From Bdellovibrionales bacterium (GTDB taxonomy: Bacteria > Bdellovibrionota > Bdellovibrionia > Bdellovibrionales > UBA1609), in NCBI GenBank assembly GCA_965219095.1, contig CBDCMT010000001.1, positions 1,152,001-1,216,000 on the forward strand: 64,000 bases of DNA. The letters run 5' to 3'. Made by a program: the position numbers and the translations under genes. Under the pieces are notes generated by a model. That model was not told the origin of the DNA. It worked only from the letters and a program-made list of their open reading frames with translations, and made no database searches. Numbering within the stretch: the first letter of the stretch is position 1; every line of letters begins with the position of its first letter. Positions 3,279 through 60,656 of the stretch are shown here, in pieces.

Positions 3279-3929
3279 ATGGAAAAAATCCTTTCAAAGC
3301 TACTTGCCTTTGGTGCTAATTTAGTAGGATTTAAGGCTTACGGCTTTATTATTTTAATTTTGATAATTTGTGGATTAGGAGTCCCTATACCTGAAGACAT
3401 TACTTTGATTTTAGCAGGTTTTCTTGCAAGTCAAGGTAATATTAGTCTTTCAGGAGCCTTTGTTGTAGGTTTTGTGGGTGTCCTCATTGGGGATACATTT
3501 TTATTTTTTTTAGGACGAAAGTTTGGTTACAGAGTTTTTAGACTTAAGTTGATAAAAGGGATTTTTAGTGAAAAAAGACTTCAAAAGGCTAAAAATAGGA
3601 TCCATAGAAATTCTAAGTTCATTTGTTTTACAGCGAGGTTTTTACCAGGACTTCGTGCCTCTATTTATCTTGTATCAGGAGCTATGAAAGTTTCACCCTT
3701 TGTTTTTTTATTTCTAGATGGTTTCGCAGCTCTTATTAGTGTTCCTATTTGGGTGTACCTAGGTTGGTATTTAGGAACAGAGATTGATTTTGAAAATTTA
3801 TTTGAAAGTGAAGCATTCCAGCAGATTAAAGACATTCAATTCTACTTTTTTGCAGGCATAGTCTTTATTATTACTATTTATGTCGGTCGATCTTTTTATA
3901 AAAATTATAAAGCTAAAAGAGATCAATAA
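3279..3929 (+). CDS. dedA: DedA family membrane protein
   Basis: GLGVPIPEDITLILAG, GD..LFFLGR and ARFLPGLR motifs. Confidence 0.92.
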   Translation: MEKILSKLLAFGANLVGFKAYGFIILILIICGLGVPIPEDITLILAGFLASQGNISLSGAFVVGFVGVLIGDTFLFFLGRKFGYRVFRLKLIKGIFSEKRLQKAKNRIHRNSKFICFTARFLPGLRASIYLVSGAMKVSPFVFLFLDGFAALISVPIWVYLGWYLGTEIDFENLFESEAFQQIKDIQFYFFAGIVFIITIYVGRSFYKNYKAKRDQ

Positions 3930-13100: not shown

Positions 13101-13496
13101 CATACTGAATCTTTTAGTATGGGAGGAGATTGCTACTTGTATGCTAAACGACGTCTCATCGATGCTTTCAAAAAGGCTCAAGATCTTTACCAAAAAACTA
13201 TAAAAACAAGCCAATATAAAAAAATAGCAAGAACTACATTAAATATGACTCTGGCACTTGAGCCGATAAATTTTGATGGTCTGATCAATGCAATAGGAGG
13301 AAGTACTCATATTTACACAAAAACAGGTGCTTTTGGCTATAGAGAAGGGGATGAAGGCAATCACAAACCTATTTTTGGAAATTCGAAAGGAAAGCTCCCA
13401 GAACAAAAAAATTTAGGTCCTATTCAACACACTCGTAATAGATTAGGAATTTCAGAAGGCGAGCTTTATCTTTATTGGCTTTTAAGGAGGCTTTAA
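10107..13496 (+). CDS. Large secreted hypothetical protein (1129 aa)
   Basis: Signal peptide ending QAFA; long uninterrupted ORF; adjacent to an S8 protease gene. Confidence 0.85.
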   Translation: MKNFKKKYLVALSSMLAHQAFAGFMSLNPLFHPLANDLVCNEETKFLCKKIGLKKEEVIDTEKLLSQSDFKIDYSLFNPKESDIWKNRKPIKISNPRLIEDHKKVKFREVSPVGSGMFRFLIEDKKGQQYRFIIGRKSHNILLRRALLRKLGYIVPDSSHVKKVSVEFKNSVAWRTFLKNMSYGVGTSNLSRWVTNIDKKSLEDHPDKTKWVIRKEASYEKNTLILQDVIVTTSWDQLYDLSIVFISSVMKNRRVFNSLLIPYALVDVPESFNKFNWNMGKQTNEQIFFKSDFLKDFRMGYEDGKWIAKKILDLERKDFEDIVKEAALPQPVSLLAIEKLISRRNSLCLIFFPNKQSCIMEIDFKKTDPQHPHLLKNGRLLLDTKNGDPKDSDHWWEGYGSRFSYGPDEAPLSRKEMTAFFTSQIFSNLISNFVSDINKDFLPNSDNSIQRKAYKEYTEDYQNQIIERIMEGKEPKNRITSLKNWSKDILYVRLNASRDIIFGGYLGTSHNIQLVHSFGWAVDAGWFLGSHGGPRDLSLSGRSGLAYSENYTQVTPSISIKEANKTPYKNIFVHFMMKKVSEKLNKVNDLKKKKEMDFQNNPQSTKKIKEEEEKLRNELSEILNEHLKVGESFIITRNIGPFAALNAILSISPHTKLSLNLRNQITELERVHILRKDQNTVHIYSSNATRFNWGFTLQLRKWIPIFTYKNRKARSVLKPVNVKFLSLNILPDIKKNPEFEQNSIVLKNFFSEPLSTENISDFIDAKDYVELSSHFTESFKDFKFLWQSSSTLEQNNIIKVKEYKNKEPFQKKFIWASSGKRTGVNYQSVFLDILNHIIEENLGLEDINVGLTNTNRPSETIFGHSTVQQSFYEGVIEEETQNVKEAFVNVSYRWKGWALSKEKLEALIRKLNSFQKSLQVKTNLPPLPISSFSLTNQLQLYSIFYNIYIYEKGIQNIANWGKPLDSHKLDKKNYEKRRSENLYKLFEMYGGFHNVNCDHTESFSMGGDCYLYAKRRLIDAFKKAQDLYQKTIKTSQYKKIARTTLNMTLALEPINFDGLINAIGGSTHIYTKTGAFGYREGDEGNHKPIFGNSKGKLPEQKNLGPIQHTRNRLGISEGELYLYWLLRRL

Positions 13497-16400
13497 TGAA
13501 ACAAATGTTAATTTTTATTTTATGTTTTTTTTTTCTCTCTCTTCCTGCAACCATAAAACCTCATAGTAATTTTAACCCATACTTCAATGATCCTTTTTTT
13601 GTTTACCAATGGGGGCTTTCAGCTCAAAATCAAATTTTTATCAAAGATTTAACTGACATTAAATCAAAAAAAATTCATATTTCCCCAAAAGCTTCTATTG
13701 GTTTTTTTGAACCCCATAACCAGCCACTCACAGCTAAAATGAAAAAGGAAGTGGTGGTTGCTGTCATAGATTCTGGTTTAGATATATCTCATAAAGATTT
13801 AAAAGGAACTATATCTTTAAGCTCAGATTGTAACGAACTCCACCTCCCTCCAACTGGAAAAGCCCACGACATCAAAGACAAGGATAAGAATGGTTACAGG
13901 GGGGATTGTATGGGATGGAACTTTTCCGTTAAAGATGGAAACAACAAAGTTTACGATGATAAGGGACATGGAACTCACGTATCTAGCATCATATCAGCAA
14001 CTTCTAATAATGATGAAGGAATTGCAAGCCTCTCTGCACAAATTAAAATTCTACCCATTAAAATTTTTCGCAACACAACAGAAAAAGAGAAATCTACATA
14101 TAGAGAAGAAAAAGAAAACTATAGTATTGATTTTTCAGAAAACATCATCAAAAAAGCCATAGATTATGCAGTTTCTAAAAATGTTGATGTTATTAATATG
14201 AGTTTTGGTTGGCCTTTGGTGATTCAACATCCTTCTTTAACAGAATCCCTTCAAAAAGCTCTTGATAAAAATATTACAATTGTTGCTGCTGCGGGAAACA
14301 GCCACCACAATGCCTTTATTTTACCATGTGCTATTGAGGGAGTTTTATGCGTGGGTGCTTCAAATGGACTAGGAAAATTAGCAGAATTTTCTAATTATGG
14401 AGGCCATGTGGATCTCTTAGCTCCAGGAGAAGAAATTTTTGGAGCCCTTCCTCTATCACAAGCCACATATGAAAGAACTTTTTCTATTCCAGGCTATGGT
14501 CCTTTGACGGGAACAAGCCAAGCAGCACCTTGGGTTTCATCTGCTGTTGCTTTTTTAAAAGGAATTTTCCCTCAAATTCAAAATGATGAAATTAAAGCCA
14601 GATTATTTCTAAGTTCCTCTCATTTTGACGAACACAAAAAAACTCTTCATGGACTTTTTAATTTAAAAAAAGCAATTGAAGTCAAAAAAAACCCCGTTAT
14701 AAGACCTATATTTAAAAGTCAGAAGGAAGTGGAATTGATAAATGGTCAAGCTAAAATAAAATTTAAATTAAAAAATTACTGGGAGACGACAAAAAATTCT
14801 ATCAAGATTTCTGTTTCAACAATAGATCCCCCTATTCAAAAGTATAGTTTTACGTATCCACAAGGTTTAAAAAACAAAGAGATCAAAACGATTTCCTTTA
14901 ATCTTTCTCTTCCCTATGAATGGGTACATAGCAAGATTTCTCTTCTTGTCTCCATTCAAGAGGGAGATGGTAAAAAAGAAGATTTTTTTCATGAAGTGGA
15001 TGTTTTTAAAAGCTTTCAACTATTTTCTTCACAAAAAATATCAATCCCAATTAATCATGAAATTCAACTTTTATTAAAAGAACGTTTTAAAAGTAAAAGG
15101 GGCATTACACCTTTCTTTGAAATAGGGAAACCTTCAGGATCTCCTAGTTATTATTTAACCAAAACTGAAGAAGGGGGAACAAAAGTTTTTATTTGGAAAA
15201 AAGGGAGATACGGCCTTGATCTCAAAGAGGTTTTTATTCCTAATCTATTAAATGGACAAGGAACACTATCCCCTTCTCTTATTAAATATGACTTTAATCA
15301 TGACGGGAAAGATGATTATCTTATTAGCGGGCTTTCAAAAAAACATGATGAGTCTAATAAAGATTTTGAACAAACTGTTTTATTTTCTTTTTTCGATCAC
15401 AACCTGGAACCTCTATTTAAAAACATTTCTCATCATTGGAAACAAAAATTTCAAAGAATAGTTTTTAGATGGGAGAATCCTAAAGTGAGATTTTTAACTT
15501 ATTCTTTTGAAGGTGAGAAGATAAGCCTTCCTTTTCTTATAGGAAGAAATTACCCTCCTGAAAAAGATCTTCTTACACATCCAGATGATGCTTTTTTAAA
15601 TAGGAATAGAAATTATATTTTCTATTTACATCCTGTCATTAAAAGAAATTCCCAAGGTAATGAGGAGGTAATTTTAGAAGAAAGGATTCTAGATTCTTAT
15701 CATTTCATGAAAAACTTAAAAGAAAAATTAACTCTACACCAAAAATCAGAGAAAAATATCCCTGAAAATCTAAATGCTGAAAACCCTCTAACTACCTTAC
15801 AGTTTCTTTCTTTGTTTCCTCAAAAAAACAAGGAAGAATTAAAGGGTCTTCTAGCTATAGGGGAGGGGGGAAGCAAAAAATACTACATCATTCACTGGAA
15901 AAGTAAGTTTTTAGAAAATAACTTTAAAGAAGCAGATTATGACATACGCAGCTTAGATTATGGAAATAAAAAATTAGATGGAAACACACTTCAAACTCTC
16001 TTTCGCATTTCTAAAGACAAGGTTCTTCCTTCGGAATCTTATGTCTTTATTCGACATTACAAAGATTTAGAAAAGCCCTCAAGAGTACTCATAAGTGGAT
16101 CAGAGAATAACTCTAAAACTGCTAGTGTGTTTACCCCTTCCTTTAAAAATAAAAGTGATAGGTTGACTTACTTTAAAAAAGCGTATGAAACAGATGAGCA
16201 TTACATTGTTTTTTATGAATCTCAAAATCAAATTATAGCAAAAACTATACCTCTTTCAAAAAAAGACAACTTAGAAAACTTTACAAGAGAAAATAAAGAG
16301 GGAAAAACTTTCTTTAAGCGAGTCATTCGCTCCGCTCTATTTCCAGATGTCTTTTTTAGCGAAAGACTTTCTCCTTTAGTGATTAAGAGAGGGACAGTTT

Positions 16401-16645
16401 TAAAACCAGCTCTATATGTCAATGCATCAGAAATCTACTCTCAAAAAGTTTTCCTTTGGTTCCTTGATGAACACAAGGGAGAATTTTTTGCACCTATAAA
16501 GTACAGCCTTAAAGTTCCTAAAAATTGTCTTAGTTTAAAACCTACTCCTTACGGCGAAGGTGATGAATATAAAGCAGTTTTTATGTGCCAAAGAAAAAAA
16601 GACTCCAACATCTTTTGGACCCTTTATTATTACACTTTTAATTAG
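13496..16645 (+). CDS. Secreted S8 (subtilase) serine protease with long C-terminal extension
   Basis: VAVIDSG, HGTHV, AAAGN and GTSQAAP catalytic motifs; DFNHDGKDD motif; probable ATG at 13496 overlaps the upstream stop. Confidence 0.92.
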   Translation: MKQMLIFILCFFFLSLPATIKPHSNFNPYFNDPFFVYQWGLSAQNQIFIKDLTDIKSKKIHISPKASIGFFEPHNQPLTAKMKKEVVVAVIDSGLDISHKDLKGTISLSSDCNELHLPPTGKAHDIKDKDKNGYRGDCMGWNFSVKDGNNKVYDDKGHGTHVSSIISATSNNDEGIASLSAQIKILPIKIFRNTTEKEKSTYREEKENYSIDFSENIIKKAIDYAVSKNVDVINMSFGWPLVIQHPSLTESLQKALDKNITIVAAAGNSHHNAFILPCAIEGVLCVGASNGLGKLAEFSNYGGHVDLLAPGEEIFGALPLSQATYERTFSIPGYGPLTGTSQAAPWVSSAVAFLKGIFPQIQNDEIKARLFLSSSHFDEHKKTLHGLFNLKKAIEVKKNPVIRPIFKSQKEVELINGQAKIKFKLKNYWETTKNSIKISVSTIDPPIQKYSFTYPQGLKNKEIKTISFNLSLPYEWVHSKISLLVSIQEGDGKKEDFFHEVDVFKSFQLFSSQKISIPINHEIQLLLKERFKSKRGITPFFEIGKPSGSPSYYLTKTEEGGTKVFIWKKGRYGLDLKEVFIPNLLNGQGTLSPSLIKYDFNHDGKDDYLISGLSKKHDESNKDFEQTVLFSFFDHNLEPLFKNISHHWKQKFQRIVFRWENPKVRFLTYSFEGEKISLPFLIGRNYPPEKDLLTHPDDAFLNRNRNYIFYLHPVIKRNSQGNEEVILEERILDSYHFMKNLKEKLTLHQKSEKNIPENLNAENPLTTLQFLSLFPQKNKEELKGLLAIGEGGSKKYYIIHWKSKFLENNFKEADYDIRSLDYGNKKLDGNTLQTLFRISKDKVLPSESYVFIRHYKDLEKPSRVLISGSENNSKTASVFTPSFKNKSDRLTYFKKAYETDEHYIVFYESQNQIIAKTIPLSKKDNLENFTRENKEGKTFFKRVIRSALFPDVFFSERLSPLVIKRGTVLKPALYVNASEIYSQKVFLWFLDEHKGEFFAPIKYSLKVPKNCLSLKPTPYGEGDEYKAVFMCQRKKDSNIFWTLYYYTFN

Positions 16646-16799
16646 GGCATGTCGTCAATTAATCTAACCAAACCATAAAGAAGCTAACATAACTTAAAGC
16701 TAAGAAGTGTTTTCTCTTTTTGATAGACATACCGGGAGACCTTTGAGTGCATATTGATAACAATTACAGAAATTAATTCGACGGTAAATCAAAAAGACA

Positions 16800-16917
16800 G
16801 GTCACTGGTTTAAGCCATGATAGTGACCCTAAAGTACTTGCAGAAGGAGGTGAGCTTTTCGAGACAAATTCTAAACCCTTTAGCTGGCCTGGTTTTTAAG
16901 GCCTCAAAGGGAAAAGC
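16800..16917 (+). ncRNA. Structured 5' non-coding region of the IS110 element
   Basis: Stems GGTCACT/AGTGACC, GCTTTTC/GAAAAGC, CCCTTT/AAAGGG, GGCCT/AGGCC; second copy near 53612-53729. Confidence 0.5.
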
Positions 16918-16985
16918 AAAAAAAAGATGTAAAATAGGATTTCAAGACTTTATTTATAAATAAACCAACAAAGGAGGAAAATAAA

Positions 16986-19454
16986 ATGTATGATCACTAT
17001 ATAGCCGTAGATTGGGCACAAAGTAACATGGCCATTTCAAGGATGACAGGCAAATCAAAAGATATTAAGAAAGACTATGGACACGATTTCAGATCTTGGG
17101 AATCTTCGTGCCTATTTAAAAACTCTGAAAGGTAAGAAGATATTGACTATCGAAGAGACTACAACTTCGATAGTGGTTGTATTCAGAATTAAAGGATAGT
17201 GTTGATGAGTTCATAGTCTGTGATCCTCTTCGGAACAAACTTTTAAGTGAAGGGGCTAAAACTGATAAAATTGATGCTGAAAAACTTGTTTTATTGTTAC
17301 GCTCTGGCCTTTTGAAACCAGTTTTTCACTCAGGTGATGAATTCATTTACCTTCGTAAGATTGTCAGTGGGTATGAAGATGTGGTTAAAAGAGGAGTTCG
17401 TGTTAAAAACCAAAGATCAGCTCTGTTTCGAGCTTCCCATCTTGATGCTAAGAAGCAGACTCAATTAAAACGGGCAGAAGAGATATATTTGTTCTAGTGT
17501 TCTGACCAGTAAATTTTTTCACAATTTTCAAGCCTTTAATCCAGGTCATTTTATTAAATTATTTTTATATTAAAAAGAATAAAAGTGAAATGTTTAGAGT
17601 TATACCAATTCCAAAAGTTAATTCTACATTTTCATGTATAAGTTTGGATTTTTACTTCTAGAAATTTATAACTTTTAAGTATGGGTAAAGAGTGTATCAA
17701 ATTCATTGGAAAGATATGATTTTCTAATGTTTATATACAATTTAGTTTACAGGCTCTTACAGGCTCTTACAGGCTCGTCTCATTTTTTATAATGGAACTT
17801 TTCTCTGGCTGATTTTCTTGAAAAATTCCATTTTATTATAATCTTCCGTCTGTTCATAATATTCACCCAAGCCTTGGTTCTTTTTCTTAAAGTTTCTATG
17901 TCAGGTATTCTTGATTTTCCTAAACATTGACGAGAGTACATATTGATTGCAATTTCTGCTTGATTTAACCAACTTCCATGACTCGGAGTATAATGAACCT
18001 CAAAGCGAGACCATAGATGCAAACCTCGATCTTTTCCATAAAAATCAGTAAGACTTTTTTTTCTATGAGTGTTCAAATTATCCATAACTAGAACAATCTT
18101 CTTGGAATCAGAATAATGTCTCTCAACAGAAGATAAAAACTTAGCAAAATCCGGACCTGTCCTTCTCTCTGTTACCTTATTCATATAAAAACCTCTCTTA
18201 GGCTCCACAGCACAGAAAACATTTGCTGTACCCTCTCTTTTATACTCATAATCTACTTTTTTTACTTCCGAGGGATGACAACCCGATGGAGGACGAACAT
18301 CATCAAGTAACTGAAGAGGCTTTTCATCAATACACACAACAGGCTTTCCTTTAATCGGAGGCTTCTCATACACTTTCAAAACATCCTCCATCCTCTCTAT
18401 AAATTCATCATTAAGCTCTGGTACACACCAACTCTTCTGTTGCCAAGGTTTTAGATCATGTTCTAAAAGAATAATCCTAACTTTTTCTTTGCTAATAGAG
18501 TCTACAATCTTGTTTTTTTCTGCCCTCTCTTTAATGAGCTCTAAAGTCCATCGATCAAAGCCCTCCGGAGGATCTGAGCAGACTATAGCTATAATCTTTG
18601 ACTTTATGCGATCATCAAACTTTGGAGGTTTTCCAGGACGAGGATCATCTTCAAGAGCTTTTTTCAGCCCAGAATTCTCATAGTTTTTTTGGATGTTGAA
18701 AACAGTTCTAGGAGTTATCTCTAAGTAATCTGCTGTCTCTATGGCAGTTAAATTTTTGTTCCTTAAGTTTAGAACATTGGCTCGATATATGGCTCTTGGA
18801 TTTTTAGACTTCTTTATAATTTTAAGAATTTCTCTCTTATCTTTTGGCTTTAATAAATTTAACATATGAGTATTAAAACATAAAAAAAAAATAAATAAAA
18901 TGACCTGGATTAAAGGCTTGAAAATTATGAAAAAAATTACTGGTCAGAACACTAGAAGGCTTAGATAAAGCTATCAGTTCTTATGGGGAGGAGAAAGCAC
19001 GTTATGAAGCAGAGTTTAAGAGGCTAAGTAAAAAACACAAAGATATTAGAAATCTTAATAGCATTCCAGGAATTGGTTCTATCAAGGCTATCAAGATTGT
19101 AGCCAGGGTTGTAGTGCCTCACCGATTTAAACGTAATTTCTGGTGGAGTGGACTGCGGACTTGTAAAGCTACATAAAATGAGTGGTGGAAGGTCTTATGG
19201 AACTAAGAAGTCTAGATTTTGTCCACAAATGAAAAGTGTTTTTAAGATAGCTGCACTCTCAGTTATAGGAAATAACAATGAATTTAATGATTTTTATGAA
19301 GAATTGATCAAAAAAAATTTACCACCACACACTGCTAGAAACGCTACCAACTAGAAGAATTGCAGCTTTAACTTTAGGTGTTTTCAAGTCTGGGAAAAAA
19401 TATAAACCTTATGGAGAACGTAAAAATGTAAATAATAATAAAACAACCTTATAA
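16986..19454 (+). pseudogene. IS110-family DEDD recombinase, frameshifted and split by an IS630 insertion
   Basis: YIAVDWAQ, TIEE, KTDKIDA, SIPGIG, KMSGG motifs; element spans 16783-19841. Confidence 0.92.
17497..18952 (-). mobile_element. Intact IS630-family element type C (transposase 17780..18865)
   Basis: About 60-bp IRs starting GTGTTCTGACCAGTAA; TA duplicated within CTAG (empty site near 54302); CIDEKP, VMDNLNTH, SWLNQAE motifs. Confidence 0.95.
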
Positions 19455-19469
19455 AATCATCTGTTTAAA

Positions 19470-19737
19470 GTTTCTTGCATAGTAAGTAACAATACAAATA
19501 ATGACTTTATGAGGTGAGGATAGATAGCTTAATAAAAATGATATTTATAAAAAATTCATTTCGACGAATAGCACATCCTCTATTCCTAAAATTTACTATA
19601 ATCTAAGGTTTTAAATCTTTGGAATAAATTCATGATTTAAAACTAAAAAAGGTTCATATAGACGAATAATAGGAATATGTTTGTTTTACAATGTGTAAAG
19701 GAAGAGTCATTAAAAAATGGAAAGGAAATGCAGGAAG
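19470..19737 (+). ncRNA. Candidate bridge/seekRNA in the IS110 3' non-coding end
   Basis: Nested stems TAATGACT/AGTCATTA, GAGGAT/ATCCTC, TATTCCTA/TAGGAATA, GTTTTAAATC/GATTTAAAAC; two internal loops share TTCAT-NNN-GACGAATA. Confidence 0.75.
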
Positions 19738-19820
19738 TTTTTTCTTAGGTGATTAAAATATTCGTGACCGTATGCAAAAAAAATTTTTTATATTTTTTGT
19801 AAATGGAGAAGTGTTTTTTC

Positions 19821-19826
19821 TTGACA
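19821..19826 (+). promoter_or_regulatory. Outward-facing -35 box in the IS110 right end (possible circle-junction promoter half)
   Basis: TTGACA 15 bp before the element end; retained in the 1291-1435 fragment. Confidence 0.5.
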
Positions 19827-20120
19827 TACTTTTTGATAGACACTCTAAAAATTTAACAGAGTTTGATTAAAAAGCCAGAGGCTATGCGTTAAAAGAATGT
19901 CGAATTAATTTTTGGAAATGGTATAATTATAGGCTTTTACTTGAAATGAAAATCAATTACACAATTTGATTGATAGACTTAGGATCTGATTTACAGAATC
20001 TTTACAAACTCTAAGCGGGCTTCCTTATGTTGGCTACCCGCTTTATTTTTTTCTTTAAATCTGTTCTTATGATCACACTACTACTTTTTGAACTCTATAC
20101 ATACAATTTTACTTCGCATA

Positions 20121-53569: not shown

Positions 53570-54475
53570 TACCAATTATAGAAATTAATTCGACGGTAAA
53601 TCAAAAAGACAGGTCACTGGTTTAAGCCATAATAGTGACCCTAAAGTACTTGCAGAAGGAGGTGAGCTTTTCGAGATAAATTCTAAACCCTTTAGCTGGC
53701 CTGGTTTTTAAGGCCTCAAAGGAAAAAGCAAAAAAAAGATGTAAAATAGGATTTCAAGACTTTATTTATAAATAAACCAACAAAGGAGGAAAATAAAATG
53801 TATGATCACTATATAGCCGTAGATTGGGCACAAAGTAACATGGCCATTTCAAGGATGACAGGCAAATCAAAAGATATTAAGACTATGGACACGATTTCAG
53901 ATCTTGGAAATCTTCGTGCCTATTTAAAAACTCTGAAAGGTAAGAAGATATTGACTATCGAAGAGACTACAACTTCGATAGTGGTTGTATTCAGAATTAA
54001 AGGATAGTGTTGATGAGCTCATAGTCTGTGATCCTCTTCGGAACAAACTTTTAAGTGAAGGGGCTAAAACTGATAAAATTGATGCTGAAAAACTTATTTT
54101 ATTGTTACGCTCTGGCCTTTTGAAACCAGTTTTTCACTCAGGTGATGAATTCATTTACCTTCGTAAGATTGTCAGTGGGTATGAAGATGTGGTTAAAAGA
54201 GGAGTTCGTGTTAAAAACCAAAGATCAGCTCTGTTTCGAGCTTCCCACCTTGATGCTAAGAAGCAGACTCAATTAAAACGGGCGGAAGAGATATATTTGT
54301 TCTAGAAGGCTTAGATAAAGCTATCAGTTCTTATGGGGAGGAGAAAGCACGTTATGAAGCAGAGTTTAAGAGGCTAAGTAAAAAACACAAAGATATTAGA
54401 AATCTTAATAGCATTCCAGGAATTGGTTCTATCAAGGCTATCAAGATTGTAGCCAGGGTTGTAGTGCCTCACCGA
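53570..54475 (+). mobile_element. Second, 3'-truncated copy of the IS630-B-end plus IS110 composite
   Basis: Identity with the 16758 copy begins at the IS630 IR; same frameshifts; lacks the IS630-C insertion. Confidence 0.92.
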
Positions 54476-56340: not shown

Positions 56341-57369
56341 TCATAATACAGTTTTCTGACTTTGCTTTTTCAACATTATTCTCTTGAGAAAGTTTACTAC
56401 ATCTGAATGTCCTTTTGCTGTCGCCCCCATAAATGCTGCCATTATTACTGTCGTTCTGTATTTATTAACTTTAGTATCTAGATTTAGATTTGAAACTTCA
56501 AAAAGAACTCTTACACTATCGAGATGTCCGTAACGTGCTGCATACATAAATGCTGTTATTCCGTTATTATCTTTAGCATTTACATTTGAAACTTCAGAAA
56601 GAAACTTTACACTATCGAGATGTCCGTAACGTGCTGCATACATAAGTGCTGTCGTTCCGTCATTATCTTTAGCATTTACATTTGAAACTTCAGAAAGAAA
56701 CTTTACACTATCGAGATGTCCGTAACGTGCTGCAGACATAAGTGCTGTCATTCCGTATTCATCTTTAGCATTTACATCTAAACCTTTAACTTTAAAAAGA
56801 AGCTCTAGAATATCGAGATGTCCGTAACGTGCTGCATACATAAATGCTGTCGTTCCGTATTCATCTTTAGCATTTACATTTATTACTGGAAATTCGAGAA
56901 GAGACTTTACAAGATTTGAATCTCCTTTCTTTGCTGCATCTATAAGTACACTTTCTAAATCAGCACCATTTTTATTAAGAACTCTTGCAAAACTTAAATC
57001 CCCATTTTTTATTGCTTTCGTAAGTGCATTTTGTAGTGATTTATTATTCGCATTGGCTTTGTATGACAAAAGAAGCTTCGCCATTTCTTTTTGACCAGAA
57101 TTAAGAGCATATTCCAACATAGTTTCATTTTTATAACTAATCCTATAATTCACAGGTACTTCAATTTGACACTGTTCTAATATTTTTCTAAAAAGATTAA
57201 TTCTTCCTTCGGAAATAACTTCTTTTAACTCTTTTCTAAAGTATTTAGAGCAATCCACATATTCAGGATCCACATCTTCAGAAAAAGCAGGAAAGCTTAA
57301 GCTTATTAAAGCTCCCATGGTAAATAAAGCTATTAAAGCCTTCCTTATATTATTGTTATTTGGTTTCAT
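56341..57369 (-). CDS. Secreted ankyrin repeat protein
   Basis: Signal peptide; four near-identical NVNAKD..G.TA.MYAARYGHLD repeats plus degenerate ones; AGGAGG RBS. Confidence 0.95.
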   Translation of the reverse strand: MKPNNNNIRKALIALFTMGALISLSFPAFSEDVDPEYVDCSKYFRKELKEVISEGRINLFRKILEQCQIEVPVNYRISYKNETMLEYALNSGQKEMAKLLLSYKANANNKSLQNALTKAIKNGDLSFARVLNKNGADLESVLIDAAKKGDSNLVKSLLEFPVINVNAKDEYGTTAFMYAARYGHLDILELLFKVKGLDVNAKDEYGMTALMSAARYGHLDSVKFLSEVSNVNAKDNDGTTALMYAARYGHLDSVKFLSEVSNVNAKDNNGITAFMYAARYGHLDSVRVLFEVSNLNLDTKVNKYRTTVIMAAFMGATAKGHSDVVNFLKRIMLKKQSQKTVL

Positions 57370-58768: not shown

Positions 58769-60656
58769 TTACTGTACACACTTTTCAAGGGCTTTCGCTA
58801 TTTTTAAACTTCTCTGAGATACTTCTAGAACGCCTTCCGCATATATCTTGCCAGCCTCAGAAAATATTTCTTTATATGACAGAAATAATTCCCCATTAAT
58901 ACTATCATCACAACCTTCACCCTTTTTGCAAAGCTCTGATAGCTGTTGAAACCCATCTGCAAATGTATGAAATATCACTGAGGTCAAGTTCAAAGCTAAA
59001 ACAGTTTCTATCTGTAATGTAATACCAATTACAGAAATTAATTCGACATTTTTATGTTCAAATTTAAAATTTTAAAATTGACTTAAGGAAAAGTTTCAAT
59101 TAGGAGGCTTTAAAAAAGTTTTTTTTGAAGGGAGGTTGAGTTTTCATAAGATATGTTTATTTTATGTATATCTATTGTTGTGTGAATCGATTGATGGGTT
59201 AAAATAAGTGTAAAAAAGTGAGGTTAAGATGTAAAATGAAAAAAATCAGTTACGCAATTTAATTTATAGGTTCAAATTAATTTACAAGCTTGATTCATCT
59301 TGTTGTTTTGCCCAAGATCGAGTGCATAATTTTTTAATCCTGCCCTCCTGATCGCAAAAAGTATTCCAGGCCTCACAACAAGTATTCAGTATATGGTCAT
59401 AGTTTTTAAAACATGCATTCGATAATTTGATCCTTCGTAATTGTTGCCAGACTTGTTCCATGGGATTTAATTCTGGACTATAAGGAGGTAAAGGCATCAG
59501 GGATAAATTCTTAGGAACTATCAAAGTCTCTGTGGTATGCCAACTGGCTCTGTCCATTAAAACAATTCCATGATAGTTTTCTTGAATATTTTTAGATATC
59601 TCATCTAAGTGAATTTGCATCATCCCTGAATTACATTCCGGTAAAATCCAAGCACAGCCTTTATCTTTATCCGGACAAACTGCTCCAAAAATATAAGTGG
59701 ATAAAAATTGTCTTTGTCTCACAACTCTAGGTCGTGTGCCTTTTCTTGCCCAAATCCTGCTTAAAGAACCTTGCTGGCCTATTCTGCATTCATCCTGCCA
59801 CCAAATCTCTATTTTATGAGTCTGAATCTTTTCCTTTATTTTCTCCACCTCTTCTGGAAAATGTTCCTTAAACTGTTCCATAGCTTCTTGTGAAGTTTTA
59901 GGATGAAGAGAACGACCACTGATCCATACAATATTAAGACGGTCTAAAAGAGCATAAACCCCAGAAAGAGAATAGCAACAGTCAAATTCATTTGCTAAAA
60001 GTTCCTGTATTCCCTTTGCTCCTATGCTTCCTCCTTCTCTCTTGTCTTGAATTTCATCTAACTTGATTTTGAAGTTCTCTTCTTCTGTCACTGGTAAACG
60101 AGGCTTGCGCCCTCTGCCTTCTCGATCTATCAACCCCTCGTAATCAAAGTCTACAAAAGACTGTAACCAGGATTTGATACTGTGACGGTGATAGAAAACT
60201 ATACTTGCTGTTTCTTGAATCGATTTTCCTTCTTGCATATGCTGCAAAGCTTGGAGTTTTATCTTGATGTTGGCACTTCTTTCTACTTTGTAAGTAGCTA
60301 GAAAATCATACCCTTGAATTTGTGTAACTAAATCTTTTTTCGACACTCTAAAAATTTAACAGAGTTTGATCAAAAAGCCAGGACGCAATGCGTTAAAAGA
60401 ATGTCGAATTAATTTTTGGAAATGGTATAAGGTAGGTATTAGGAAGATTTTTACATGTTACTTCCTCCTCATTTGTTTTGATTCTTTCAAGGCTATCTCT
60501 TGATTCTTGAACCATATTTTTAAGATTTTCTTGTTGCTGTTTTACAAGATCACCAGAGCTAGGATGTGTCATGATTTGTGCCGGTGATATTATACTTAGA
60601 GTCATTACTGCTGAAACGAGTAATGAAGTGGTTAGTAGTTTTTTTGTTGTATTCAT
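58769..60656 (-). pseudogene. Secreted protein gene split by IS630-B
   Basis: Joining 60656-60428 to 59022-58769 gives an in-frame 160-aa ORF with signal peptide. Confidence 0.8.
59023..60427 (-). mobile_element. Intact IS630-family type B element (transposase 59282..60346)
   Basis: Both IRs present; uninterrupted 354-aa DDE transposase; extra 167 bp (59071-59237) relative to the 57459 copy. Confidence 0.95.

Follow-up and report, generated by a model that had tools for sequence, protein, structure and literature searches.

A predicted bispecific bridge/seek RNA gene in a disabled IS1111-type IS110-family element, with its guides read from homologues

The window, a stretch of 64,000 nucleotides from the genome of a Bdellovibrionales bacterium, carries at positions 19499–19712 what is very probably the gene of a bispecific bridge/seek RNA, which belongs to an IS1111-type element of the IS110 family whose protein is disabled in this copy. 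The initial annotation had proposed a two-loop RNA of this kind 3' of the recombinase gene, with loop 1 reading the target and loop 2 the donor, and with TTCGAC, ATAGAC and ATTTAC as guides; both the general proposal and these assignments were borne out by comparison of homologues, in which guides and stems covary. Bridge RNA systems have been known since 2024 and have already been engineered, and Durrant et al. (2024, PMC11208160) predicted right-end bridge RNAs for 93% of the IS1111 elements. One more such RNA in a dead copy is therefore no surprise, and the value of the case lies in the clade. The latter is large, and its proteins are remote from those of IS621 and ISCro4, which have been solved. 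Natural variation reveals all four guides, the two handshake pairs and the position of the cut, and the clade bears on a point at issue between the two founding papers, namely whether IS1111-type RNAs use the donor loop. Further related literature includes the preprint by Perry et al., PMC13626964 and PMC12288879.

In the proposed mechanism, the element would circularise by joining its right end to its left end, and the circle junction would create a promoter (TTGACA-17 bp-TAAATC) that transcribes both recombinase and RNA, the RNA then being processed out and bound by the recombinase. Loop 1, as the covariation shows, opens the target: the 9 nt of its 5' strand pair with top-strand DNA to the right of the cut, and its 3' strand, through ~5 nt and the CG, pairs with the bottom strand to the left; loop 2 acts likewise on the circle junction. 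The natural junctions place the crossover just 5' of the C, which gives an element reading C-GGTAAAT…ATAGA with no target duplication. The geometry is that of IS621 with the strand reversed, CG/CR standing in for the CT core, and the two covarying bases after each CG would pair with the partner DNA after exchange, as the handshake does in IS621. The guides of the window copy specify site A, which adjoins the terminal repeat of an abundant IS630.

The element and its RNA gene

The element spans positions 16782–19840, and its features are listed in Table 1. In the recombinase pseudogene, PF01548 was detected above the cut-off and pieces of PF02371 below it, both domains being found on the intact homologue L004. 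NF033542 matched all eight members examined, with L004 scoring 116.8, below the cut-off of 140, and the D/E/D/D and SG columns were kept in the members, apart from the first D, which is E in one of the eight. The recombinase of intact relatives has ~335 residues. At E ≤ 1e-20 the clade counts 1661 proteins, most of which come from uncultured bacteria, and the solved relatives IS621 (E 5.6e-11) and ISCro4 (E 2.9e-9) are only distantly similar. Full-length matches in the plasmid collection reach at most 27% identity, and no named IS was found among the close relatives of the recombinase in the plasmid-collection and protein comparisons. On its DNA and RNA features, from which the class is drawn, the element appears to be of IS1111 type, and it is so called here rather than a proven member of the IS1111 clade; the proline of the GL-P----S(T)G motif of that group is absent in 8/8 members, with the G-L and S-G spacing kept.

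Table 1. Positions of the element, its RNA and related sequences in the window
Feature	Position	Strand	Details
Left flank: terminal repeat of target IS630 and left half of site A (TTCGA 16777–16781)	16758–16781	+	Sequence continues into the empty site at 59023–59054
Left end of element	16782–16796	+	6-bp extension from the C; sub-terminal inverted repeat 16788–16796; −10-like hexamer 16785–16790
IS110-family DEDD recombinase pseudogene, ~335 codons	16986–19454	+	Several frameshifts; split by IS630
Unrelated IS630-family element	17498–18955	−	Inserted at CTAG in the recombinase gene; intact 361-aa ORF 17780–18865
Predicted bridge/seek RNA gene	19499–19712	+	Closing helix 19499–19506 with 19705–19712; fold
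Closing helix motifs	TAATGACT 19499, AGTCATTA 19705	+	Sequence check
Target-binding loop	19516–19580	+	Stems 19516–19521/19575–19580 and 19527–19529/19570–19572; small inner hairpin
Loop 1 stem motifs	GAGGAT 19516, ATCCTC 19575	+	Sequence check
5' target guide, 9 nt	19533–19541	+	Complements top strand right of cut
3' target guide	19560–19568	+	TTCGA (left flank), CG (element's first two bases), two handshake bases
Donor-binding loop	19581–19677	+	Long inner hairpin 19600–19654
Loop 2 outer stem motifs	TATTCCTA 19581, TAGGAATA 19670	+	Sequence check
5' donor guide, 9 nt	19590–19598	+	Complements element's left end: 6 Watson–Crick pairs and 1 wobble of 9
Loop 2 inner helix motifs	GTTTTAAATC 19608, GATTTAAAAC 19634	+	Sequence check
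3' donor guide	19657–19666	+	ATAGA (right end), CG, two handshake bases
Short motifs	TTCGAC 16777, 19560, 53589; ATAGAC 19658, 19836; ATTTAC 19591; GTAAAT 16784		
Right end of element	19821–19840	+	−35 hexamer TTGACA 19821–19826; sub-terminal inverted repeat 19829–19837; 3-bp extension
Right flank: right half of site B and other terminal repeat of target IS630	19841–19923	+	
Second copy of element, 3'-truncated, without RNA, at site A	53594–54475	+	
Uninterrupted target IS630 copy	59023–60427	−	Empty site A 59042–59054; empty site B 60339–60351

The RNA is contained in the 386 bp 3' of the recombinase stop codon, and all motifs named in the initial annotation sit where it had placed them. RNAfold returned the multibranch fold with both stem-loops that had been predicted there, with z = −3.79 for 19455–19841 (0/100 shuffles as good) and z = −4.49 for 19495–19715 (0/200 shuffles as good). 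A structure alignment of 48 RNAs was built from the window RNA, that of L004 and 46 of the 81 distinct RNAs of suitable length. From it, RNAalifold recovered the two stems of the target loop as well as the inner stem of the donor loop, and compensatory changes were seen; the outer donor stem was not recovered from the 48 aligned RNAs, its pairing amounting to 38% in the misaligned register of the window and to 86.5% in the family register. With the outer donor stem counted in the latter register, two-sided changes were found in 17 of the 19 stem pairs. Stem cells were paired in 92% versus 82% after shuffling, a value reached by 0/500 shuffles, and slid controls gave 36–63%, so that the covariation check on homologous 3' ends came out positive for the stems as it did for the guides against the insertion sites (see below). 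The closing helix is weakly supported in homologues, in which its own partner was better in 53/81. No Rfam family reached the gathering score in 16700–20100, where six weak matches were obtained, and no terminator-like site was found for the RNA region.

The likeness of the two loops was confirmed in part. They are pseudo-symmetric at family level, with [TC]CA-N6-CG in 80/86 donor loops and 48/86 target loops, and the exact TTCAT-NNN-GAC-GAATA duplication is private to the window copy. A 16-nt duplicated scaffold was not retained, as the best ungapped self-match was 14, and shuffles gave at least 13 in 161/200 and at least 14 in 31/200. Nor is TAAT a shared scaffold position, since it precedes the guide in loop 1 and follows it in loop 2.

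The sub-terminal inverted repeat has 9 bp in the window and at least 7 bp in 53 of 63 homologues, its sequence varying in step. Terminal extensions of 7+3 bp are the commonest offset among homologues, and the window has 6+3. When the ends are joined, a TTGACA-like hexamer stands 17 bp from a TAAAAT-like hexamer in 53/62, which constitutes a predicted promoter; the −10 hexamer of the window is weak (3/6 match). The joined circle junction was not found in the host genome (3.1 Mb, 34% GC, 94% complete).

Several further sequences were noted in the window. An isolated right-end relic of the same element lies at 16706–16728, 55 bp upstream of the left junction, and another at ~1400–1427, followed by site-B sequence with T replacing C. 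Left of the element, 13475–16645 encodes a 1056-aa ORF that by eye is subtilase-like, and tandem coding repeats near 56.5 kb (56430–56900) were labelled ankyrin-like, likewise by eye.

Guides and handshake positions in homologues

Three homologue scans yielded 194 loci, the second and third being represented by the best 80 of 161 and the best 80 of 515, respectively. Of the 193 loci with a gene, 58 could not be parsed (24 without 3' sequence and 34 without anchors), and the remaining 135 gave 86 distinct guide pairs, whose counts are not those of independent events, as the homologues are related, yet target guides differ between near relatives. The 86 distinct RNAs come from many phyla.

The 5' target guide corresponds to the nine bases after a scaffold anchor and complements the right flank in 47 of 67 homologues at ≥6/7 Watson–Crick pairs, scored as the best of two registers with shuffles treated alike (shuffle mean 1.8, maximum 8). 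The 3' target guide equals the left flank in 50/70 at ≥4/5 (shuffle mean 3.2, maximum 12), with identity at background level by position −6. In the target loop, the base after CG tracks position +2 of the element's left end (GGT or GAT) in 70/74; in the window copy, the two target-loop handshake bases do not match its own left end. Conversely, the donor-loop handshake after CG agreed with target position +2 in 41/67 (21.5 in shuffles) and with +3 in 33/67 (16.8 in shuffles).

Within the donor loop, the 5' guide covaries weakly, the left end being nearly invariant and the parser pattern having demanded part of the match. It often shows a wobble or mismatch at the two bases adjoining the cut, with 37/71 paired at the C. 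The 3' donor guide tracks the A/G difference of the right end in 70/70 homologues, and it also follows the right end in a subfamily with T for C in the core. In the donor guide of the window copy, the letters at 19657 (T) and 19665 (A) occur in 1 of 21 genome copies, most others reading TTCAG-ATAGAC-GCATA, and contigs of four public runs from one study, in which repeats are collapsed, mostly carry the majority letters at 19588, 19657 and 19665 (G and C at the latter two). The letters at these three positions are private to the window copy or assembly errors.

That the 3' donor guide follows the right end throughout, including the A/G switch and the T-core subfamily, argues against a reading in which the target loop is the sole guide, the protein recognises the ends via the sub-terminal repeats, and loop 2 is part of a precursor whose match to the ends is not needed. 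We consider this alternative improbable. It draws on the movement of ISEc11, for which a short target-only seekRNA sufficed (Siddiquee et al. 2024, PMC11187229), on the conservation of the sub-terminal repeats and on the imperfect pairing of the 5' donor guide beside the cut. The covariation of the bases after the 3' donor guide with the target would be hard to explain under it unless loop 2 engages DNA during exchange, and a target-loop-only RNA of CazIS110-1 supported neither excision nor integration (bioRxiv 2025.10.25.684509). Under the preferred, bispecific reading, a donor-matching second loop with a covarying handshake is evident here, whereas Siddiquee et al. (PMC11187229) describe target matches only.

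In other respects the element resembles those described by these authors. ISEc11, ISPa11, ISKpn4 and ISPst6 likewise have a long non-coding region 3' of the DEDD transposase (PMC11187229), and shared with the IS1111 seekRNA elements are 7(6)-bp left and 3-bp right extensions beside sub-terminal repeats, the lack of a target duplication, a top-strand match 5' of the bottom-strand match (here as seen in the homologues), natural guide reprogramming and a ~335-aa transposase (PMC11187229). The sub-terminal repeat is shorter here, at 9 bp, than the usual 11–13 of Siddiquee et al. (PMC11187229) and lies within the 7–17 of Durrant et al.

The RNA also agrees with those of IS621 and ISCro4 (PMC11208160, PMC11208158) in the succession of target loop and donor loop, in the two guides of each internal loop, in the 9-nt first guide, in a second guide running through two core bases into two handshake bases, and in a cut that falls 3' of the core in the strand to which this second guide is bound; pseudo-symmetric loops and handshake positions are likewise found in IS621 (PMC11208158). 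The differences from IS621 are that the RNA here lies at the element's right end, that relative to the gene it is the other DNA strand which is read, and that, instead of a matched CT, the core-equivalent consists of CG on the donor side and of C-purine (at times TG) on the target side, without being duplicated; moreover, the first target guide occurs in different registers.

Target sites and copies in the host genome

Sites A and B both lie in the non-coding ends of an abundant IS630, of which 62 near-full copies were found. The window copy is a mosaic, with its left flank from site A and its right flank from site B, and its guide names A: the 5' target guide pairs in 8/9 positions with site A and in 5/9 with site B. 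Two empty-site matches were found in the window versus 0.07 expected, and the genome has 86 empty sites A, 25 B, 4 C and 37 D. Junctions were found at A (24 left, 7 right) and B (4 left, 15 right), as well as at site C, a short repeat, and site D, at the end of an IS481. Among the 18 genome copies with an intact target loop, seven carry a site-A guide, nine a site-B guide and two a third set, for which no exact site was found in the genome and which fits C and D only with a 1-nt bulge. The guide agrees with the copy's own right flank in 5 of 13 copies with a right end, or in 6/13 when a bulge is allowed.

Sister copies are thus reprogrammed to another site in the same IS630 and to other repeats, and the left-A/right-B mosaic probably arose later, by recombination between copies or mobilisation in trans. 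An element reprogrammed between the ends of other insertion sequences represents a small case of one mobile element parasitising others. IS4321 and IS5075, of the IS1111 family, reportedly target the terminal repeats of another mobile element; by comparison, the targets here are the ends of an IS630 and of an IS481 together with a short repeat, and several guide versions coexist in one genome.

The fold and guides of the window copy are intact, while the six other genome copies read in three frames carry the same frameshift lesions as its recombinase, and copies sit at sites that their own guides do not name, as would fit use in trans at some time. This might point to an RNA that continues to be expressed and either works in trans or was domesticated, which we deem quite unlikely. 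The assembly contains no intact partner recombinase of the clade (0/94 genome matches span the whole open frame in this 94%-complete assembly), the linear element lacks the junction promoter, with one promoter-like site upstream versus 2.9 expected by chance, and the donor guide of the window copy has private changes.

Copies of the target IS630 have 3-bp TAA/TTA duplications at their two sides, which are identical in 43/48; the target duplication usually given for the IS630 family is TA. An 85-bp repeat right of the element was considered as a MITE and rejected, as it is the end of the 1.4-kb IS630. In 61 IS630 copies three bases are inserted exactly at site B, which might represent a footprint or a way of evading the guide. 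In the window (16758–19923) and at C2:1748080, the element lies between two IS630 terminal repeats, the 1.3-kb IS630 interior being gone. Junctions of the left-A (24) and right-B (15) kinds are more frequent than those of the left-B (4) and right-A (7) kinds, so that composites of this sort may be widespread, and the IS630 transposase could mobilise them. As regards IS630 ends carrying the dead element as cargo, two complete left-A/right-B copies were paired, and the 3-bp duplication was matching in one and non-matching in the other.

In a diverged sister subfamily (for instance at C2:705041, C2:625726 and C1:10892-10583), what the 5' target guide specifies seems to be the left end of these very elements, inverted. 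There are 17 right-end junctions ATAGAT-GATTT, and this would be an IS110 that targets its own kind.

Cut site, core and register of the first guide

A homologue found inserted ten times on one contig has C at every left junction, and the base after the right end is T in eight of the insertions, A in one and C in one; the 5' guide of these copies has A opposite the right-junction T. Distinct left junctions read CG in 94/101, TG in five and CA in two, and 81 distinct right junctions read CG in 49, CA in 21 and otherwise in 11. The constant left C is therefore part of the element, the base on the right following the target, and nothing is duplicated: crossover takes place just 5' of the C, with no target duplication. 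The C as a duplicated 1-bp core was rejected on the same variation of the base after the right end. A matched dinucleotide core is absent, the donor having CG and the target the variable bases of the right junctions.

The junctions take both core-equivalent bases from one partner, as judged from the left CG, in likeness to the single-strand transfer described for CazIS110-1 and IS621 (bioRxiv 2025.10.25.684509; 2026.08.31.748434). One-strand transfer would fit them, and biased repair after two-strand exchange would also be compatible.

In the window copy, GAC occurs at each of the junctions and in each of the loops, and the initial annotation had taken it as the core, with AGATAG as the 5' target guide and TTCGAC-N-CTATCT as the target. 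This register, with GAC duplicated, is extremely improbable. A GAC or AC core was rejected, with 0/70 parsed homologue left flanks ending in GAC, and copies in the host genome sit also after TAAC and CAAC; TTCGAC-N-CTATCT occurs 0 times in the genome. The segment equivalent to AGATAG is conserved scaffold (AGAGAG in 32/67) that does not covary with the right flanks (1.81 pairs versus 1.75 in shuffles, p = 0.25). With the real 5' target guide placed as in Table 1, the caveat of a merely partial right-flank match, which that annotation had attached to its proposal, is removed.

That the fold is incidental, an AT-rich 3' sequence of terminator or leader-like nature with matches arising by chance, can practically be dismissed: the matches have a length of 6–9 nt and the genome a GC content of 34%, the 16-mer duplication does not exceed chance and nothing was found at the Rfam gathering score, but chance short matches are ruled out because guides and flanks change together across phyla, far beyond shuffles, and the stems covary, and a terminator-like site was not found.

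Among the 59 elements with both flanks, the cut base pairs with guide position 9 in 22, position 8 in 21, position 7 in three and positions 10–11 in three, ten being not assignable. The ninth guide base pairs with target position −1 in 20/21 elements of register 8 versus 2/22 of register 9, and a permutation on a slightly different element set gave 19/22 versus 11.5 (p = 0.00025). A quick tree of 47 recombinases shows 11–12 changes of the register label, at least 5–6 of them being forced by well-supported branches. The window copy belongs to register 8, with a mismatch at −1.

We tentatively propose, in a judgement that is finely balanced but leans slightly to doubt, that the clade is an IS1111-type bridge system with the four guides and two handshakes of IS621 and without a matched core, in which the second guide alone fixes the cut and the 9-nt first target guide slides 1–2 nt across it. 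If so, it would provide a core-tolerant programmable recombinase scaffold, and the comparison would settle that IS1111-type RNAs do use the donor loop. No paper on guide register shifts or on this clade was found in a literature search confined to the text of open papers, so that a member may be described elsewhere, and a motif search of the supplements of Durrant et al. found no ends of this kind among the matches listed. Intact multi-copy members (e.g. L092–L104 and L072–L081) are ready candidates for tests.

Loci L072–L081 form the subfamily with T for C at the element's first base, which have a matching T in both loops; ten copies, apparently intact, are on one contig. The target loop of the L003 RNA contains, from position 3320 onward, what we take to be a group II intron-like sequence, judged by eye from its 5' motif, as is also the case in L041 and L042. 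Loci L021–L023, L067, L136, L157, L167, L169 and L172 target GC-rich repeat-like sequences. Similar GC-rich target strings appear for IS621 relatives among the matches listed from the supplement of Durrant et al., which suggests convergent targeting of the same repeats.
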